DNA from: Candidatus Hydrogenedentota bacterium
Lineage (GTDB): Bacteria; Hydrogenedentota; Hydrogenedentia; Hydrogenedentales; SLHB01
Reading direction: 5' to 3'
Length of the DNA: 64,000 nt
Assembly (NCBI GenBank): GCA_045863335.1
Contig: BTVY01000014.1
Location: forward strand, 69,862 to 133,861
In this document: piece by piece, positions 54,764 to 63,762 of the stretch
How positions within the stretch are numbered: the first letter of the stretch is position 1
How the letters are laid out: the number at the start of each line of letters is the position of its first letter
Made by a program: the position numbers and the translations under genes
Notes under the pieces: generated by a model
Seen by the model: only the letters and a program-made list of their open reading frames with translations
Databases searched by the model: none
What the model was told of the DNA's origin: nothing

Positions 54764-56023
54764 ATGCTCCACTGGCTCCAACGCTTCCGCCGCAACGTGC
54801 AACCCGCCCCGCGCGCCGAAACCTTCACCACCCGCGAACGCGGCGGAGCACTGTTCCCCGTATCGCTCGCGGAAGACCAGCGTCACTACCAGGGCATTCC
54901 CCGCGAGTTTGTCGCCCTTCCCAACGACACGCCCTTCGGTATGCTGCAGGTCTACCGTTTCTTGCGCGATGCGATCCCCGATATCTCGGATGCCGTGTGG
55001 ACGTGGAAACGCCTTTGTCAGACCGGCTACGACATCGAGATTCATAAGCCGTCGTCAGGCGCTGCGAAAAGCCGCGCGCAACGCCTGCTCCGCGAATTCG
55101 ACATGCGCGTGAACTCGGGCGACCGGGGCATGGACGGGCTCCTCGATGTTTTCTATACGTCCCTCTTCACCTACGGTGCCGCCGCGGTCGAGATCGTGCT
55201 CTCCCAAAGCCGCGAATCCATCTTCGACGTCGTCCCTGTCGACGTTTGGACCGTTCGCTTCCGCCGCGAGAATGGGGTTCTCCTTCCCTACCAAGTCCTC
55301 GACGGCGAAGCCATCCCCCTGCCGCCCGAACGGTTCATCTACGTCGGTCTCGATCGCGACGGCACCAATCCCTATGGGCGCTCCATGCTGCGGTCCATCC
55401 CCTTCGTCGTAAAGATTCAGCAGCGCCTCCTCGAAGACATGGCGAAGGCCACGCACAACGCCGGCTGGTCCAAACTGCACGTGCAATACACGCCGGACGA
55501 ACGCGCGCGCGGCGAATCGGCCGAGAACCACGAGAAACGGATCCAGGGCAATTTCGATCTGCTGCGGGATCGGCTATCCGGACTCGAGACCGACCAGAAC
55601 TTCGTCACCTTCGACAACGTGCGCGTGAACCTCATTCGCGGCGACCAACACGCGCAGATCTTCTACGACAACCACAAGGCCATCGAGGAACAGGTGATCA
55701 CCGGCATGCACCTCATGCCCATCCTGCTTGGCCGCAACTACGGCACAACGGAGACGTACGGCACGGCCCAGTTCGAAATCATCAACCGCCACGTCGAAGC
55801 CGTGAACCGCAGCGTCAAACGCATCCTCGAACGGTTGTACAACTTCGAACTCGCGCTCATGTGGGGATACGCCGAGGCCCGCGTGAAGATGCGCGCCAAC
55901 CGTACGGTCGACGTGCTCAAGGAAGCCAACGCGCGCCAACGCGAAATCGCGAACGCCATACAGCTCCGCGACGAAGGCTTCCTCTCCCACGACGACGCCG
56001 GGAAAACCCTCGGTATTGGATAG
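54764..56023 (+). CDS. Phage portal protein
   Basis: 419 aa, first gene of the cassette; LFTYGAAAVEIV, IPLPPERFIY, NPYGRSMLRSI (portal G.S.L motif), P.LLG...GT. Confidence 0.72.
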   Translation: MLHWLQRFRRNVQPAPRAETFTTRERGGALFPVSLAEDQRHYQGIPREFVALPNDTPFGMLQVYRFLRDAIPDISDAVWTWKRLCQTGYDIEIHKPSSGAAKSRAQRLLREFDMRVNSGDRGMDGLLDVFYTSLFTYGAAAVEIVLSQSRESIFDVVPVDVWTVRFRRENGVLLPYQVLDGEAIPLPPERFIYVGLDRDGTNPYGRSMLRSIPFVVKIQQRLLEDMAKATHNAGWSKLHVQYTPDERARGESAENHEKRIQGNFDLLRDRLSGLETDQNFVTFDNVRVNLIRGDQHAQIFYDNHKAIEEQVITGMHLMPILLGRNYGTTETYGTAQFEIINRHVEAVNRSVKRILERLYNFELALMWGYAEARVKMRANRTVDVLKEANARQREIANAIQLRDEGFLSHDDAGKTLGIG

Positions 56024-56031
56024 GTGTTCTC

Positions 56032-56062
56032 AATCCGCAATCCGCAATCCGAAGTCCGCAAT
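56032..56062. repeat. AATCCGC heptamer tandem repeat
   Basis: aatccgc aatccgc aatccga agtccgc aat; same family at 39731-39757, 58236-58260 and 63195-63226. Confidence 0.8.
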
Positions 56063-56065
56063 GGA

Positions 56066-56156
56066 AAGGGTCATACATGGGGACACTCGTTGGCCCCCTG
56101 AATGATTAGTAGTTATTTGCCCACCGGGCTGACGGGTGTCCCCATGTATGCCCCTT
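56066..56156 (+). other. Long stem-loop between portal and protease
   Basis: Arms 56066-56096 / 56126-56156, about 31 bp with 3 G-U pairs and 1 mismatch, 29-nt loop. Confidence 0.7.
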
Positions 56157-56183
56157 GCCTGACAACTGAAACGGAGCAACGCC

Positions 56184-61179: not shown

Positions 61180-61184
61180 CCATC

Positions 61185-62924
61185 GTGAACTACGCCATTG
61201 AAATCTATGATATCGAAGGCCGCCGCATTGGCCGCTATACCGACGTGCCCCTGTTGGAGGCCATTCGCAGGCGGCCCGGCGATGCGGATGAAGTGCGCGG
61301 ACTGCTGCCGGAAGGCCACACCGATCTCAGCCACGGCTACCGTGTGCGTGTGCTCGTTGACGAAAGGCTCTTCTGCGAAGCACCCGTCACCGAGACCGCG
61401 CCGCAATGGAGCGAAACCCGGAAACTCATTCTCGACAAGTACGTCACCTTTCGCGAAATCATCGAATTCACCGCGGCGCGCGACCCGCTCGAGGGAAACA
61501 CGGCCATCTCCCGCGTGTACACGAACCGCAGCATCGACGCCATCGTGAAGGACGCGATTCAGAGCGCGCCAGGACGGATTCACTACACGGTGTCGCATAC
61601 CGCCTACCCCGGCGGTGCGGAACGGGAGTACCAGAAGTTTTTCACGCGCAAGACTGACAGTAACGAACTTGCGATTGGCGGTATCGATACGGGCCAATGG
61701 GTCGGCAGCGATCGCATGGACCTCACGAACGCCTACGCCAAAGACGGCGACACCATCGCGGGCATCGAAGTGGACGGCGCGCCCTGGCCGGACCTGCGGC
61801 TCATGCTGATCGACGCGGAAGAGACCTCGAAGAACTCGCACGCCGTTGCGCGACACCCTGAAGTCGCGGACTGGACCACAGACCAATACAACGCCAGCGG
61901 CTACAAGCTGAAAGCCGATGCTGCGAAAGCCGCATTACAGTCGCTCATCGATACGAAGGGCATCGATTACATCGAACTCAATCCTCACCGCGATGCCAGC
62001 GGCAGTTTCGATGATCGCGTCGATGCGTACGGCCGCTATCTGGGTCTCGTCTTCGGAGGCGGCGAGTGTTTTAACGCCGCGCTCGTCGAGCAGGGGCTTG
62101 CCGATGTGTATCTCTACGAAGACGGCAAGTACCTCGTCCCGGAACTGGAGCTGAAAGATTTCATTTCCTACTCGGATGTTAACGAGGACTCCGTTCATGG
62201 AGCGCCCGTATCGCTCGTCAATTTCGACGCCTCCGGCGGCGTGCTCGAAGCGTTGACCGCGCTGGCCTACGCGGCGGGCGGGTACATCTGGTCGTTGGAC
62301 CCGATCCTGCGCGTAACTTTTCGGCCTGCGTCACAGGCGGACCGCGTCTGGTTCTACGATCCGATTCGCGTGGGCGTAGTTCTCGGCTCGGACTCCCGCG
62401 ATCTGATCAACGCGGTCTACTTCGACGGCAATCCCATTACCGGGACGCTGGAGAAGACCTACTGGGCGAGCGCGAGCATCGACGCCTTTGGCTTTCATGC
62501 GCGGTCCCTCGATCACTTCGGTGTCTCCTTGGAAGAGGATGCCGACAAACTCGTCGAAGGTCTGCTCGAAGACGTCGCCTATCCCGAGCCCTCAGGCGAA
62601 GTCGAGTTCTACGACGGCTTCGCGGAGGTAAACGTGGGCGATCTGGTCGAGTTCCGTGGCGGCGTGTTGCGCCGATTGGACCGTGGGGTAGAGGGCGAGT
62701 GGGGTGATCGCCCCGCGGGACGACTCGTCGCGCGCGTGAAGGAAGTCATCCATCGCTTCTCGGGTTCGCACGTCCACACGCGCGTCCGGCTCACGTCGCC
62801 ACTGCGATCCGTCCCAGATCCGCTCCGGTTTGCGGTCCGCAGTCAACCCCGCGAGACCGAACTCTTCCAATTCCGCCTCGACGCCGAAGACGTCGGCCTC
62901 GACGCCGGGTATCACCTGGATTAG
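61185..62924 (+). CDS. Tail tip/baseplate hub (Tal-like) protein with an inserted SNase (thermonuclease) domain
   Basis: Hub-like N/C termini (IEIYD..GRRIG, LINAVY..G, SIDAFG, VGDLVEF); central DGDT...LRLMLIDAEET...DAYGRYLGLV...NAALVEQGLADVY; start 61170 or 61185. Confidence 0.68.
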   Translation: MNYAIEIYDIEGRRIGRYTDVPLLEAIRRRPGDADEVRGLLPEGHTDLSHGYRVRVLVDERLFCEAPVTETAPQWSETRKLILDKYVTFREIIEFTAARDPLEGNTAISRVYTNRSIDAIVKDAIQSAPGRIHYTVSHTAYPGGAEREYQKFFTRKTDSNELAIGGIDTGQWVGSDRMDLTNAYAKDGDTIAGIEVDGAPWPDLRLMLIDAEETSKNSHAVARHPEVADWTTDQYNASGYKLKADAAKAALQSLIDTKGIDYIELNPHRDASGSFDDRVDAYGRYLGLVFGGGECFNAALVEQGLADVYLYEDGKYLVPELELKDFISYSDVNEDSVHGAPVSLVNFDASGGVLEALTALAYAAGGYIWSLDPILRVTFRPASQADRVWFYDPIRVGVVLGSDSRDLINAVYFDGNPITGTLEKTYWASASIDAFGFHARSLDHFGVSLEEDADKLVEGLLEDVAYPEPSGEVEFYDGFAEVNVGDLVEFRGGVLRRLDRGVEGEWGDRPAGRLVARVKEVIHRFSGSHVHTRVRLTSPLRSVPDPLRFAVRSQPRETELFQFRLDAEDVGLDAGYHLD

Positions 62925-63024
62925 AAGAAATATGGAGTGCGAAGGCTTGCCTTCGCCGTTCTGAAGCAGGATATCCAGGATCCGTACGCGATGAACGCAG
63001 AGCAGAGAATTTGAAGTGAATCCA

Positions 63025-63192
63025 AAGAACATCCCCCTTGATCCCCCTTCGAAGGGGGAATTGTGCATCGCTAGGGTTGCCTGTATGTCCAACGCTACCG
63101 GCTCCGGGTAAACCCTGGACGGTTTTTCCAGACACAACGCGAAGCGTTGTGTGGCACTCCCCCTTCGAAGGGGGATCAAGGGGGATGTTCTT
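63025..63192. repeat. REPIN/MITE-like inverted-repeat element, copy 3 (inside the phage-like cassette)
   Basis: Perfect 35-bp IR 63025-63059 / 63158-63192; internal ACACAACGC-GAA-GCGTTGTGT hairpin. Confidence 0.9.
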
Positions 63193-63240
63193 CCAATCCG
63201 CAGTCCGCAATCCGAAATCCGCAATCTGAGGAACCGAAAG

Positions 63241-63762
63241 ATGGCCATCAAAGGCAAAGCCTACACCAAGACCTCGTGGACCTTCGCCGAACGCCCTGTT
63301 GCATCGTCGAAACTGAATTCCTGGGACGACCGCATCGAAGCGGCGCTCGAACTTGTTCACTTTCTGCTCAGCCAGGCCTGGGGCGGCGGCGACGGCGTAA
63401 TCCGGAAGGCCGCCACCGACGATCTCATGGTGGTCGCGCTGGACGTGCCCGGCATGTCGGTGCGCGTGAAACCGGGGTACGCGTTCATCTCGCGCTATCC
63501 GTACCGCCTCGAAGCGGAGACGGCCACGCCGGATGTCACCGCGCCCGCAGCGAACCCGCGGATCGATCTCGTACAAGCGCGACTGGAAACCTGGGACATC
63601 AGTATCGTCCCGGGAACCGAAGCGGCGTCCCCCGTAGCCCCGAGTGCATCGGCCAACGCCCTGGCGTTGGCGCAGCTCTACCTGCGCCCCGGCATGACAT
63701 CCATCAAGAACGCCGATGATAGCGCCAACGGCTACATCATCGACGCGAGAAAGTTTCTGTAG
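63241..63762 (+). CDS. Tail-fibre attachment/upper baseplate-like protein
   Basis: V.S.KLN..DD.IE; VRVKPGYAFI, NPRIDLVQARL, G.EAASPVAP, LALAQLY. Confidence 0.55.
   Translation: MAIKGKAYTKTSWTFAERPVASSKLNSWDDRIEAALELVHFLLSQAWGGGDGVIRKAATDDLMVVALDVPGMSVRVKPGYAFISRYPYRLEAETATPDVTAPAANPRIDLVQARLETWDISIVPGTEAASPVAPSASANALALAQLYLRPGMTSIKNADDSANGYIIDARKFL

Follow-up and report, generated by a model that had tools for sequence, protein, structure and literature searches.

Examination of a 64,000-nt stretch of the genome of an uncultured Candidatus Hydrogenedentota bacterium (assembly GCA_045863335.1, contig BTVY01000014.1, positions 69,862 to 133,861, hereafter the window) revealed ten co-oriented genes related to phage head and tail-tip genes, followed on another contig, C82, by an eleventh gene, which lies beyond the tandem repeat ending the contig of the window (Table 1). 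The preliminary description of this locus, which listed a portal, a protease, a small TM protein, a PE-domain protein, a decoration protein, an HK97-type capsid, a connector, and Dit-like, Tal-like and fibre-like proteins, is confirmed as to the presence of the ten genes at or near the positions given, although the identity of some of them had to be corrected. The GC content of the cassette is 0.620, against 0.606 for the window and 0.600 for the genome.

Table 1. Features of the cassette, with their positions in the window and, where counted, the number of related loci out of 76 in which each was found.
Positions	Strand	Feature	Size	Loci (of 76)
54764-56023	+	Portal protein, Mu-gp29-type	419 aa	
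56184-56882	+	Prohead-protease-like protein with a conserved Cys/His cluster	232 aa	
56962-57186	+	Small protein with a coiled-coil-like stretch and a C-terminal hydrophobic helix	74 aa	14 (at 80% coverage or more; more as partial hits)
57297-57995	+	Protein with an N-terminal LigD-type 3'-phosphoesterase (PE) domain and a conserved C-terminal helical half	232 aa	
58275-58655	+	Small beta-rich head protein just upstream of the capsid gene	126 aa	72
58710-59759	+	HK97-fold major capsid protein	349 aa	
60073-60393	+	Putative head-tail adaptor (inferred from position and size only)	106 aa	64
60493-61179	+	Distal tail protein (Dit)	228 aa	
61170-62924	+	Baseplate hub/Tal-like protein; staphylococcal-nuclease domain inserted at about residues 187-325 (nt ~61728-62144)	584 aa	
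63027-63190		MITE-like insertion with 33-nt terminal inverted repeats, between the Tal gene and the last gene		
63241-63762	+	Small baseplate/receptor-binding-anchor-like protein	173 aa (from M31 of the 203-aa ORF)	51
63763-64000		Spacer ending in a (GTCCGTGYRR)n tandem repeat that runs to the contig end; the eleventh gene (ORF with an N-terminal TM helix, holin-like by inference) follows on C82 (reverse complement 90-443)	120 aa (C82 ORF)	

Genes of the head and tail tip

Profile searches against Pfam, PHROG, TIGRFAM-type and PDB models allowed us to attribute putative functions to most of the genes. In the head module, the portal matches Pfam Portal_Mu (7.9e-10) and phrog_3753 (2.6e-49), is 31% identical to the portal part of Bacillus phage vB_BcM_CUBc25, and is present in a single copy in the genome. 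The protease-like protein matches phrog_16951 (3.4e-34), and hhalign gave 97% and 92% to the N-terminal ~200 aa of the gene beside the portal in phages CUBc25 (L094:14334-15545) and fHoEfm07, the latter being annotated as a head maturation protease. The nearest named Atlas clusters are Peptidase_S78 at 0.93, which is a lead only, no Pfam or PDB sequence hit was obtained, and the AF2 model is poor (pLDDT 56). The small protein with a C-terminal TM helix was read from the sequence and is weakly conserved.

The PE-domain protein was recognised by a profile search against PDB, with hits to the LigD-PE structures 3p43 (2.5e-8) and 3p4h (2.4e-6) and weaker ones to 2lj6/3n9b (0.01), together with TIGR02777 (0.0035). 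Its motif GRFVLHRHxDxxGPHLDLRLE...EKxPHP has D37, R39, K65 and H68 invariant in 42 sequences. The small head protein matches phrog_4588 'virion structural protein' (2.4e-8), and the CUBc25 gene at the same position hits phrog_4588 and phrog_673 'head scaffolding'. The earlier naming as a decoration protein is not itself shown. The capsid protein matches Pfam Phage_capsid_4 (1.5e-15), phrog_3922 (1.1e-52) and TIGR01554 (1.3e-7).

In the tail-tip module, the long ORF at 60054-60548, previously taken for the connector, is in the wrong frame, the conserved gene being the one given in Table 1. Its product has no Pfam, PHROG or PDB hit, the best hhalign result is 5.7% to a CUBc25 post-capsid gene, and its assignment as an adaptor has no statistical support. 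The Dit protein matches Pfam SPP1_Dit (4e-6, 27.4 bits against a cut-off of 25) and phrog_33 (1.7e-13). The AF2 model of the Tal-like protein (pLDDT 89.2) shows a predicted gp27/Mu gp44/VgrG hub fold, with Foldseek hits to hubs and spikes (7b5h, 5.9e-12; 3d37, TMt 0.62; Mu gp44 1wru, TMt 0.57; 80alpha 6v8i; T5 pb3), while hits in BFVD are siphovirus tail proteins. The domain inserted in this hub matches staphylococcal nuclease (Pfam 1.2e-6; PDB profile 1.2e-7), and the columns that align with the DGDT, RL..D.PET and R.D.YGR stretches of SNase are conserved.

The last gene in the window, described earlier as fibre-like, codes for a protein that resembles only the N-terminal part of larger phage proteins (phrog hits of 2e-8 to 5e-5 to the N-terminal ~120 aa of 300-630-aa 'virion structural/head/baseplate' proteins). 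It has no PDB hit and the Atlas search gave leads only. The MITE-like insertion is a host repeat and not part of the machine: its 33-mer occurs 37 times in the genome, and contig depth is very high at this place in all sequencing runs examined. The same tandem repeat is found at the end of the window and at the start of the C82 reverse complement, and homologues of the C82 gene follow the last cassette gene in 43 related loci. In many relatives an M15-like peptidase gene lies beside this holin-like gene, although neither the holin nor the M15 assignment has significant statistical support.

Distribution, inheritance and genomic context

Since the window ends at a contig end, the downstream side was not visible in the preliminary description, which held that a strain-specific cassette, relaxed selection, flanking att sites or a complete prophage downstream would contradict a host-maintained element. 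None of these was observed, att-like repeats having been looked for in the flanks examined. The capsid gene is present in 36 of 41 relatives and in 115 of 135 genomes of the phylum (78 of 86 high-quality ones), nearly always once, without internal stops and at 99 to 57% identity, and gene order is conserved in other families. For all nine genes tested, dN/dS is 0.02-0.16 in close pairs, with medians of 0.20-0.43 over 346-1777 pairs per gene. Relatives show one or two more cassette genes downstream, followed by host DNA rather than a prophage.

At the loci inspected, the flanks are ordinary host genes, conserved only within families, and no integrase, tRNA, phage gene or bracketing att-like direct repeat was found. 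Host-wide intergenic repeats and a MITE sit inside the cassette.

Agreement between gene and host trees, which had likewise been proposed as a test, was examined with a tree of the portal, protease, small head protein and capsid (48 rows), in which the 11 host-family labels need 10 changes, the minimum possible, against a shuffled mean of 23.1, none of 200 shuffles being as low. Monophyly of one host family, f1, is not rejected (AU p 0.566). Capsid and RecA identities to the window track each other in close kin (99/99, 99/99, 95/93, 88/87, 87/86, 85/86 and 84/84), and in the related genome G004 the portal and capsid are 92% and 95% identical, against 74% for the neighbouring host gene. Head-only cassettes persist in three host families, f13 (capsid 10/10, hub 0/10), f4 (2/2 and 0/2) and most of f11 (20/23 and 4/23).

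A search for terminase, tube and tape-measure genes elsewhere, also suggested beforehand, found no conserved large terminase. PF03237 gave no hit in the own genome; PF03354, PF17289, PF04466 and PF05876 gave 0 of 5 genomes, two of which are single contigs; PF20441 gave one sub-threshold hit in 5; and the TerL of the nearest phage gave 0 of 5. Terminase_6C occurs in only 10 of 135 genomes, sporadically. A terminase too divergent for six Pfam models, or a non-terminase motor, cannot be excluded. The genome searches use a loose first look, and most genomes are incomplete MAGs. No tube or tape-measure gene lies in the cassette, and in searches covering only two Pfam families, PhageMin_Tail is above cut-off in 1 of 5 genomes (G014, on another contig), with one sub-threshold hit in G004, and Phage_TTP_1 gave 0 of 5. 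Of the proteins of phage CUBc25, only the portal, protease and capsid find anything in the own genome.

Nature of the putative particle

The earlier interpretation, a host-maintained, replication-less particle cassette in a lineage with no described gene transfer agent (GTA), is supported, with the reservation that 'GTA-like' holds for its evolution only. As no large terminase was found, DNA transfer is unproven and, by the canonical route, not encoded; the alternative offered at the time, a capsid repurposed as a carrier, is at least as likely.

In the explanation we favour, to which we give a probability of about one half, the cassette is a domesticated remnant of a siphovirus-type phage, inherited vertically since early in the history of Candidatus Hydrogenedentota and kept intact by selection. 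As encoded, it should build an HK97-type capsid on a portal, matured by a prohead-type protease, to which in most lineages a short tail tip (small adaptor-like protein, Dit ring, gp27-type hub and small baseplate protein) should be joined directly, without tail tube or tape measure. Without a large terminase, heads would not be filled by the canonical headful route that defines GTAs. The most likely product would be an extracellular capsid-based particle released by lysis, whose active parts would be proteins, namely a nuclease on the hub that cuts nucleic acid and a 3'-phosphoesterase encoded in the head module.

The gene identities, the distribution, the vertical pattern, purifying selection, the absence of the terminase families searched and the conserved enzyme motifs are shown by our analysis, whereas the assembly of particles, the tube-less tail, release by lysis, the association of the PE protein with the head and the role of the particle are inferred. 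No particle, transcript or protein has been seen, and the one RNA-library run that holds the locus covers the host flanks equally and is thus uninformative. No known phage joins Dit directly to the head, so the tube-less architecture has no precedent. Furthermore, the portal is as conserved as the capsid and is retained even in the head-only lineages, as would be expected if something, possibly DNA, still passes through it.

A true GTA, in which heads are filled with host DNA by a motor missed by our searches (a very divergent terminase, a host translocase or a terminase encoded at another locus) and the DNA is delivered to kin, is a possible but more tentative reading. The cassette has all the evolutionary hallmarks of GTAs, its portal is strongly conserved (69% mean column identity), and parts of the system are split over loci in some genomes, as in known GTAs. 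Staphylococcal nuclease leaves 3'-phosphate ends and LigD-PE removes them, which would make a coherent pair for processing the ends of the DNA. GTAs of other phyla are poorly characterised (PMC11841831). Against this reading stand the terminase searches, with Terminase_6C in 10 of 135 genomes against 115 of 135 for the capsid, the lack of any ATPase encoded in the cassette, the lack of a tube or tape measure for delivery, and the head-only forms, which have no delivery device at all.

An intracellular protein compartment analogous to an encapsulin, enclosing the PE enzyme or other cargo, is unlikely. The lack of a packaging motor, an enzyme gene at the scaffold position of the head module and the persistence of head-only cassettes are in its favour, but the portal, prohead-type protease, Dit, hub and baseplate-like protein are all under purifying selection, and holin-like and M15-like genes end the cassette also in the head-only forms, which points to release and to binding of cells. 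Less likely still is a phage satellite or defence island making heads and tail tips only when a helper phage supplies terminase, tube and tape measure, either to spread itself or to sabotage the phage. The missing parts are exactly those a helper could give, and capsid-forming satellites exist, but no integrase, replication gene or small terminase was seen in the flanks inspected, and the copy is single, chromosomal and vertically inherited across the phylum. Only 2 IMG/VR contigs resemble it, both being the same cassette without a terminase, and the nearest phages are only 24-31% identical in the portal. A decaying prophage remnant, suggested by an IS in G014, a 4-kb ankyrin/kelch insert in one related locus (L087), an apparent frameshift in the G004 protease and an in-frame stop in the hub of another genome (G026), is contradicted by dN/dS far below 1 in all nine genes, by ORFs intact in nearly all of the 115 genomes and by a phylum-wide distribution that follows host families.

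Among described systems, GTAs (RcGTA-type, BaGTA, VSH-1, Dd1, VTA; 'viriforms') are likewise chromosomal clusters of phage-derived structural genes without replication, integration or lysogeny genes, vertically inherited over a whole clade under purifying selection, sometimes split over loci and ending with lysis-type genes. Here, however, no large or small terminase was found, although the terminase is described as the source of selectivity and force in GTA packaging (PMC11841831); there is no tail tube, tape measure, terminator or head-completion gene, two nucleic-acid enzymes are built in, some families keep only the head half, and DNA transfer is untested. The nearest phages found, CUBc25 and Enterococcus phage fHoEfm07, share the order portal, protease(-scaffold), ~130-aa protein and capsid, with homologous portal (31% and 26% identity), protease N-domain and capsid. 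They have TerS and TerL before the portal, and adaptors, a tube, chaperones and a tape measure between capsid and tail tip, and their protease gene is 378-403 aa; the PE-domain gene that follows the protease here was not looked for in the phages.

Encapsulins are also HK97-fold shells maintained by a cell without a DNA-packaging motor and with an enzyme gene beside the shell gene, but this cassette has a portal, a prohead protease, tail-tip proteins and lysis-type genes, and its shell protein matches phage capsid families, not encapsulin models. Tailocins and extracellular contractile injection systems are domesticated phage parts with a gp27/VgrG-type hub, and their baseplates are the best structural matches of the hub; they have a sheath and tube and no head, whereas this cassette has a head and no tube or sheath. 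The LigD 3'-phosphoesterase domain and staphylococcal nuclease share with the two enzymes profile matches to solved structures and conservation of the columns aligned to their catalytic motifs, but here the enzymes are parts of virion-module proteins, the PE domain being fused to a conserved helical C-terminal half and the nuclease inserted into a tail hub, and no ligase or polymerase partner lies in the cassette.

We found no description of this cassette in print, and neither its cargo nor its function was established here. Our findings indicate that an uncultured bacterial phylum has kept, apparently by vertical descent and under purifying selection, a small set of phage head and tail-tip genes in which no DNA-packaging motor was found but which carries two nucleic-acid enzymes, and which looks like a new kind of host-owned virus-derived particle.

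Gene content of the cassette

Examination of the region confirmed ten co-oriented ORFs on the + strand, so that the observation made in the preliminary description held, apart from two gene identities. Sequence searches identified a Mu-type portal, an HK97-type major capsid protein and a distal tail protein (Dit). The capsid protein scored above the cut-offs of two curated models (Phage_capsid_4, 58.7 bits for a cut-off of 27; TIGR01554, 31.1 bits for a cut-off of 27.5), and the Dit protein scored 27.4 bits against the SPP1_Dit cut-off of 25, with phrog_33 at 1.7e-13.

The second gene has no Pfam family but belongs to phrog_16951 (3.4e-34). 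By profile comparison, it is homologous to the N-terminal ~200 residues of the gene next to the portal in the two nearest phages (97% and 92% probability), one of which is annotated as head maturation protease. The nearest named Atlas clusters gave Peptidase_S78 at 0.93 as a lead only. No Pfam or PDB hit was obtained, the AF2 model (pLDDT 56) was too poor to be searched, and catalytic residues were not assigned, so that these data neither establish nor exclude a prohead protease of the S78/S77 type.

The fourth gene begins with a putative, divergent LigD-type 3'-phosphoesterase (PE) domain. A profile of 42 homologues matched solved PE structures at 2.5e-8 and 2.4e-6, and the motif GRFVLHRHxDxxGPHLDLRLE...EKxPHP is conserved. 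However, TIGR02777 scored only 17 bits against a cut-off of 144 and Pfam found nothing, which leaves the assignment to the PE family undecided and points to a divergent relative. Comparison of the C-terminal half of this protein with the phage scaffold region gave 4.9%, and a complex prediction of the capsid with the PE protein (score 0.00) was neither for nor against binding.

The ninth gene gave a confident model (pLDDT 89), predicted to be a gp27 / Mu gp44 / VgrG-type baseplate hub with an inserted staphylococcal nuclease (SNase) domain. In the fold comparison that had been proposed for these genes, Foldseek returned a probability of 1.00 to 3d37 (TMt 0.62), 1wru (0.57), 6v8i, 7b5h and T5 pb3. 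The SNase domain is supported by Pfam (29.3 bits, cut-off 21) and by a PDB profile (1.2e-7); in an alignment of 42 sequences, the Ca-binding and catalytic stretches are conserved, with D192, T195, R210, E217, R283, D285 and R289 invariant and D215 nearly so, although nuclease activity was not assayed. An apparent frameshift in the protease-like gene of the same-genus genome G004 (two BLAST pieces in different frames) and one in-frame TAG in the hub gene of the relative G026 could each be a sequencing error or a real lesion.

Two details of the preliminary description needed correction. The gene described as a connector is the shorter of two overlapping ORFs; the longer one translates to an arginine-rich nonsense frame. 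Its identity as an adaptor rests on position and size alone, since a PDB profile search gave nothing significant and hhalign against phage post-capsid genes gave 0.1-5.7%. The gene described as a fibre encodes a 173-aa protein that resembles only the N-terminal part of larger phage structural proteins, and a PDB profile search with it gave nothing significant. Several of the small proteins have no assigned function.

The window is the last 64 kb of contig C14 and ends in a 10-nt tandem repeat, which also opens the reverse complement of contig C82 of the same genome. There, it is followed by a 120-aa ORF with one N-terminal hydrophobic helix and a charged tail. The join of the two contigs is inferred from the shared repeat and from synteny in relatives, not from a bridging read. 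Homologues of the C82 gene follow the last cassette gene in 43 related loci, and in 29 loci a ~155-aa gene with an M15-peptidase-like motif lies between them. Support for the latter is weak (Pfam 0.005; best PDB match a Listeria-phage-type L-alanyl-D-glutamate peptidase at E 0.68), and the window's own genome has no copy. We read these two genes as holin-like and endolysin-like by inference. In G004 the cassette is followed by convergent host genes, a melibiase-like gene and a two-component system; a 163-aa ORF at this place in G004 is not conserved, the conserved gene being the TM protein in another frame.

Many relatives carry, between the protease-like gene and the small TM gene, a gene for a 400-620-aa protein with an N-terminal signal anchor and the conserved start PRYLEELRVGGGYGD; one of them has a weak hit to a phage depolymerase C-terminal domain (0.004). 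The window's own genome has only a 258-aa homologue elsewhere, in a polysaccharide and TPR neighbourhood without phage genes and beside a pectate-lyase-like gene. This protein was not counted as part of the system.

Coordinates of features in the window, in other contigs of the same genome (C) and in relatives (G, genomes; L, fetched loci)
Location	Strand	Feature
window 51495-54515	-	divergent upstream neighbour, 1006-aa DUF5107 + TPR protein
window 57230-57270		(GTCCGTRNNN)n tandem repeat
window 60020-60060		(GTCCGTRNNN)n tandem repeat
window 60054-60548		longer ORF, overlapping the adaptor gene in another frame
window 60073-60393	+	putative adaptor ('connector')
window 63027-63190		164-bp MITE-like element with 33-nt terminal inverted repeats, between the hub gene and the last gene
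window 63763-64000		(GTCCGTRNNN)n tandem repeat
C19:94514-95290 (L100:8514-9290)		258-aa homologue of the signal-anchored protein
L030:4148-5506, L034:6706-8499, L032:848-2716 and others		400-620-aa signal-anchored protein
G004, C8 (L020:7584-8280)		apparent frameshift in the protease-like gene
G026, C480 (L031:6573-8312)		in-frame TAG in the hub gene
G014 (L050:11142-12233)		DDE transposase between capsid and adaptor
G112 (L087:5438-9597)		4-kb insert with an ankyrin/kelch protein between the PE gene and the small head gene
G111, G114 (L024, L089)		portal to PE gene not within 9.5 kb upstream of the rest
G014, C10:1054036-1054620 and 652941-653537 (L109, L111)		tape-measure (PhageMin_Tail) domain in two ~940-aa ORFs

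Distribution, inheritance and genomic context

The possibility that the cassette is strain-specific, named beforehand as an outcome that would speak against a host-encoded particle, was not borne out. The capsid gene was found in 36 of 41 relatives and in 115 of 135 genomes of the phylum (78 of 86 high-quality genomes; 58 of 66 genera), most of the genomes being MAGs, whereas RecA, used as a yardstick, was found in 126 of 135. The capsid gene is almost always single, has no internal stops, and runs from 99% down to 57% identity. Gene order is the same in other families, including two single-contig genomes. Among 76 fetched loci, many of which are cut short by contig ends, full-length hits numbered 75 for the capsid, 72 for the small head protein, 64 for the adaptor, 61 for Dit, 61 for the PE protein, 57 for the portal, 54 for the hub, 53 for the protease-like protein and 51 for the last small protein. 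Related loci are labelled Candidatus Hydrogenedentota, but several public MAGs carrying the cassette (L018, L034, L038-L040, L045, L051, L041 and others) are titled Nitrospiraceae, Nitrospirales, Bathyarchaeia or Planctomycetota; all those that we could map to a genome sit in the window's phylum, so these titles look like mislabels, L041 (titled Planctomycetota) being one that was not mapped. The cassette also tolerates insertions and splitting, as seen in the relatives G014 and G112 and in G111 and G114, two genomes of the same genus.

Agreement between gene trees and the host tree had likewise been proposed as a test. Identities of capsid and RecA to the window run in parallel among close kin (99/99, 99/99, 95/93, 88/87, 87/86, 85/86, 84/84). 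A maximum-likelihood tree of four concatenated head proteins was built with 48 rows, loci lacking any of the four being left out. The host was represented by coded family labels and by one marker. The eleven family labels need ten changes on this tree, the minimum possible, against 23.1 on average for shuffled labels, and 0 of 200 shuffles were as low; families f5, f10, f3 and f11 each form one branch with 98-99% support. The only oddity is that two genomes of other orders (f14, f15) nest in family f1, but transfer into them is not supported, since the tree with f1 held together is slightly better (AU p 0.566). In G004 the portal and capsid are 92% and 95% identical to those of the window, against 74% for the adjacent DUF5107-TPR host gene, which is conserved next to the cassette only within the genus.

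Relaxed selection, also foreseen as evidence against the proposal, was not observed. Pairwise dN/dS (Nei-Gojobori) is 0.02-0.16 for close pairs, and medians over all pairs with dS 0.05-1.5 are 0.20-0.43 for all nine genes tested, these medians being inflated by saturation of dS.

Nor did the search for flanking att sites or a downstream prophage, both named in advance, reveal either in the flanks examined. Flanking genes in the window, G004 and other loci are ordinary host genes shared only within families (ABC transporter, peptidases, glycosyltransferases, DJ-1/PfpI). No tRNA lies near the cassette in the window or in four long loci, and no direct repeat brackets it in G004. No integrase, replication module or small terminase was seen in the flanks scanned, although not every flank was scanned against families, and the location is fixed within families. 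All cassette genes are structural, enzymatic or lysis-type. Cassette GC is 0.620, against 0.600 for the genome. The preliminary interpretation of a host-maintained cassette without replication genes is thus supported.

The spacers between cassette genes are filled with the host's own short tandem repeats. (GTCCGTRNNN)n occurs at 45 sites genome-wide, many of them at contig ends, so that they break the assembly, and AATCCGCAATCC occurs 87 times; the repeat (AATCCGCA)n lies just before several ribosome-binding sites, the 12-mer occurring 87 times. We asked whether the (GTCCGTRNNN)n repeats before cassette genes mark a particle regulon. This was rejected because of their genome-wide occurrence, several of them lying 20-200 nt upstream of ORFs whose N-termini look like ClpB, DnaJ and ParA. 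Both repeats could be host 5'-leader or regulatory elements. The 33-nt end of the MITE-like element occurs 37 times in the genome and its palindromic core 146 times, and contig depth at this element is in the thousands in the sludge runs examined.

Packaging and tail genes sought, and head-only forms

The nearest phages are only 24-31% identical in the portal. They have TerS and TerL before the portal and, between capsid and tail tip, adaptors, a tube, chaperones and a tape measure, whereas here the portal is the first gene. A search for terminase, tube and tape-measure genes in the rest of the genome had been suggested. Large-terminase families gave nothing above threshold, with PF03237 in the window's own genome (99.4% complete) and with PF03354, PF17289, PF04466, PF05876 and PF20441 in the own genome, G004, G014 and the single-contig genomes G035 and G039, while the controls were positive. 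The TerL of the nearest phage (Terminase_6N/6C type) found nothing in those five genomes. TerS was not searched. These are absences of recognisable families, not proofs of absence, and a very divergent motor is not excluded. Across the phylum, Terminase_6C occurs in 10 of 135 genomes, scattered.

Of all the head and tail genes of phage CUBc25, only the portal, protease and capsid match anything in the own genome. No tail tube, tape-measure or terminator gene lies between the capsid and Dit or after the hub in the window or in 60+ loci. Genome-wide, only two tail families were searched: Phage_TTP_1 is in none of five genomes, and PhageMin_Tail is above cut-off only in G014, on another contig far from its cassette, possibly in a prophage or another phage-derived system.

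The hub was found in 90 of 135 genomes. It was found in 0 of 10 genomes of family f13, 0 of 2 of f4 and 4 of 23 of f11, where the capsid was found in 10 of 10, 2 of 2 and 20 of 23, respectively. In loci from these families (f13, f4 and most of f11; L077, L084, L092, L101, L102) the capsid gene is followed directly by the M15-like gene and the TM gene, and in f13 a small adaptor-like gene comes first, with no Dit, hub or last protein anywhere in those genomes with the hub profile. The head half is therefore maintained on its own, with its lysis-type genes, which could reflect either a loss or the ancestral state. A scan of IMG/VR with the portal profile returned only 2 contigs, both the same cassette in head-only form.

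Proposed function and relation to known systems

The analysis itself shows an intact, selected gene set for a portal-bearing HK97 capsid with a putative maturation-protease homologue and, in most lineages, a Dit-hub tail tip, together with an SNase domain and a putative PE domain, both with conserved motifs, and no recognisable packaging motor. We infer that the proteins assemble into a particle whose tail tip joins the head through the small adaptor without a tube, that cells release it by lysis, that it binds other cells or substrates through the tip, that the hub nuclease cuts nucleic acid, and that the PE protein, encoded where phages encode scaffold or internal proteins, is head-associated. 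Staphylococcal nuclease leaves 3'-phosphates and LigD-PE removes them, so the two could act in sequence. Transcription is not shown by the sequencing runs examined: one RNA-library run (X3) holds about half of the locus's sampled words, but its contigs cover the host flanks at the same depth, and two others (X21 and X22) are probably DNA. The DNA runs suggest activated sludge or bioreactors as sites where these bacteria are abundant.

We put about even odds on a particle that is not filled by a terminase. A true gene transfer agent (GTA) whose motor was not recognised is less likely, its main argument being the strong conservation of the portal, even in head-only forms. In its evolution the cassette behaves like a GTA, but it fails the terminase criterion, and the packaging and transfer of random host DNA were not examined, so we do not file it as a GTA. 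It is not an encapsulin, as it has a portal, a protease-like protein and a tail tip and its shell matches phage capsid models only; it is not a tailocin or eCIS, as it has a head and no tube; and it is not a phage satellite (PICI or capsid-forming PICI), as no mobility genes were seen in the flanks scanned and descent is vertical.

Public annotations call the proteins of the cassette hypothetical. A literature search on Hydrogenedentes or Hydrogenedentota with gene transfer agents or capsids, which retrieved PMC5371069 among others, found no description of it, although supplementary files, which could hold provirus lists that include it, were not covered. An 'induced provirus' in a Hydrogenedentes MAG, with a virus/host coverage ratio of 94, is mentioned in one paper (PMC9377139) and may or may not be this cassette.

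As a tentative further reading, Hydrogenedentota would make a terminase-less, capsid-based particle that carries enzymes rather than a genome, with a DNA/RNA-cutting nuclease on its tip and a 3'-end-healing phosphoesterase in or on its head. That would be a new class of domesticated virus-derived vehicle, distinct from GTAs (DNA carriers), tailocins (headless) and encapsulins (portal-less, intracellular), and in some families it would be reduced to a tail-less capsid with lysis genes.

Domesticated virus particles are known from few lineages, and the well-studied ones (RcGTA-type) lie in Alphaproteobacteria (PMC11841831); the present cassette adds a whole candidate phylum. The host has, to our knowledge, no cultured member. 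The cassette is small (about 9.5 kb, 10-12 genes), so it could be expressed heterologously, the nuclease and putative 3'-phosphoesterase give concrete biochemical handles, and the head-only families are a natural deletion series. The apparent lack of a packaging motor raises the directly testable question of whether an HK97 capsid with a portal can be kept by a cell for something other than moving DNA. If a hidden motor exists instead, this would be a GTA lineage independent of the known ones, and would bear on how widespread GTA-type exchange is.
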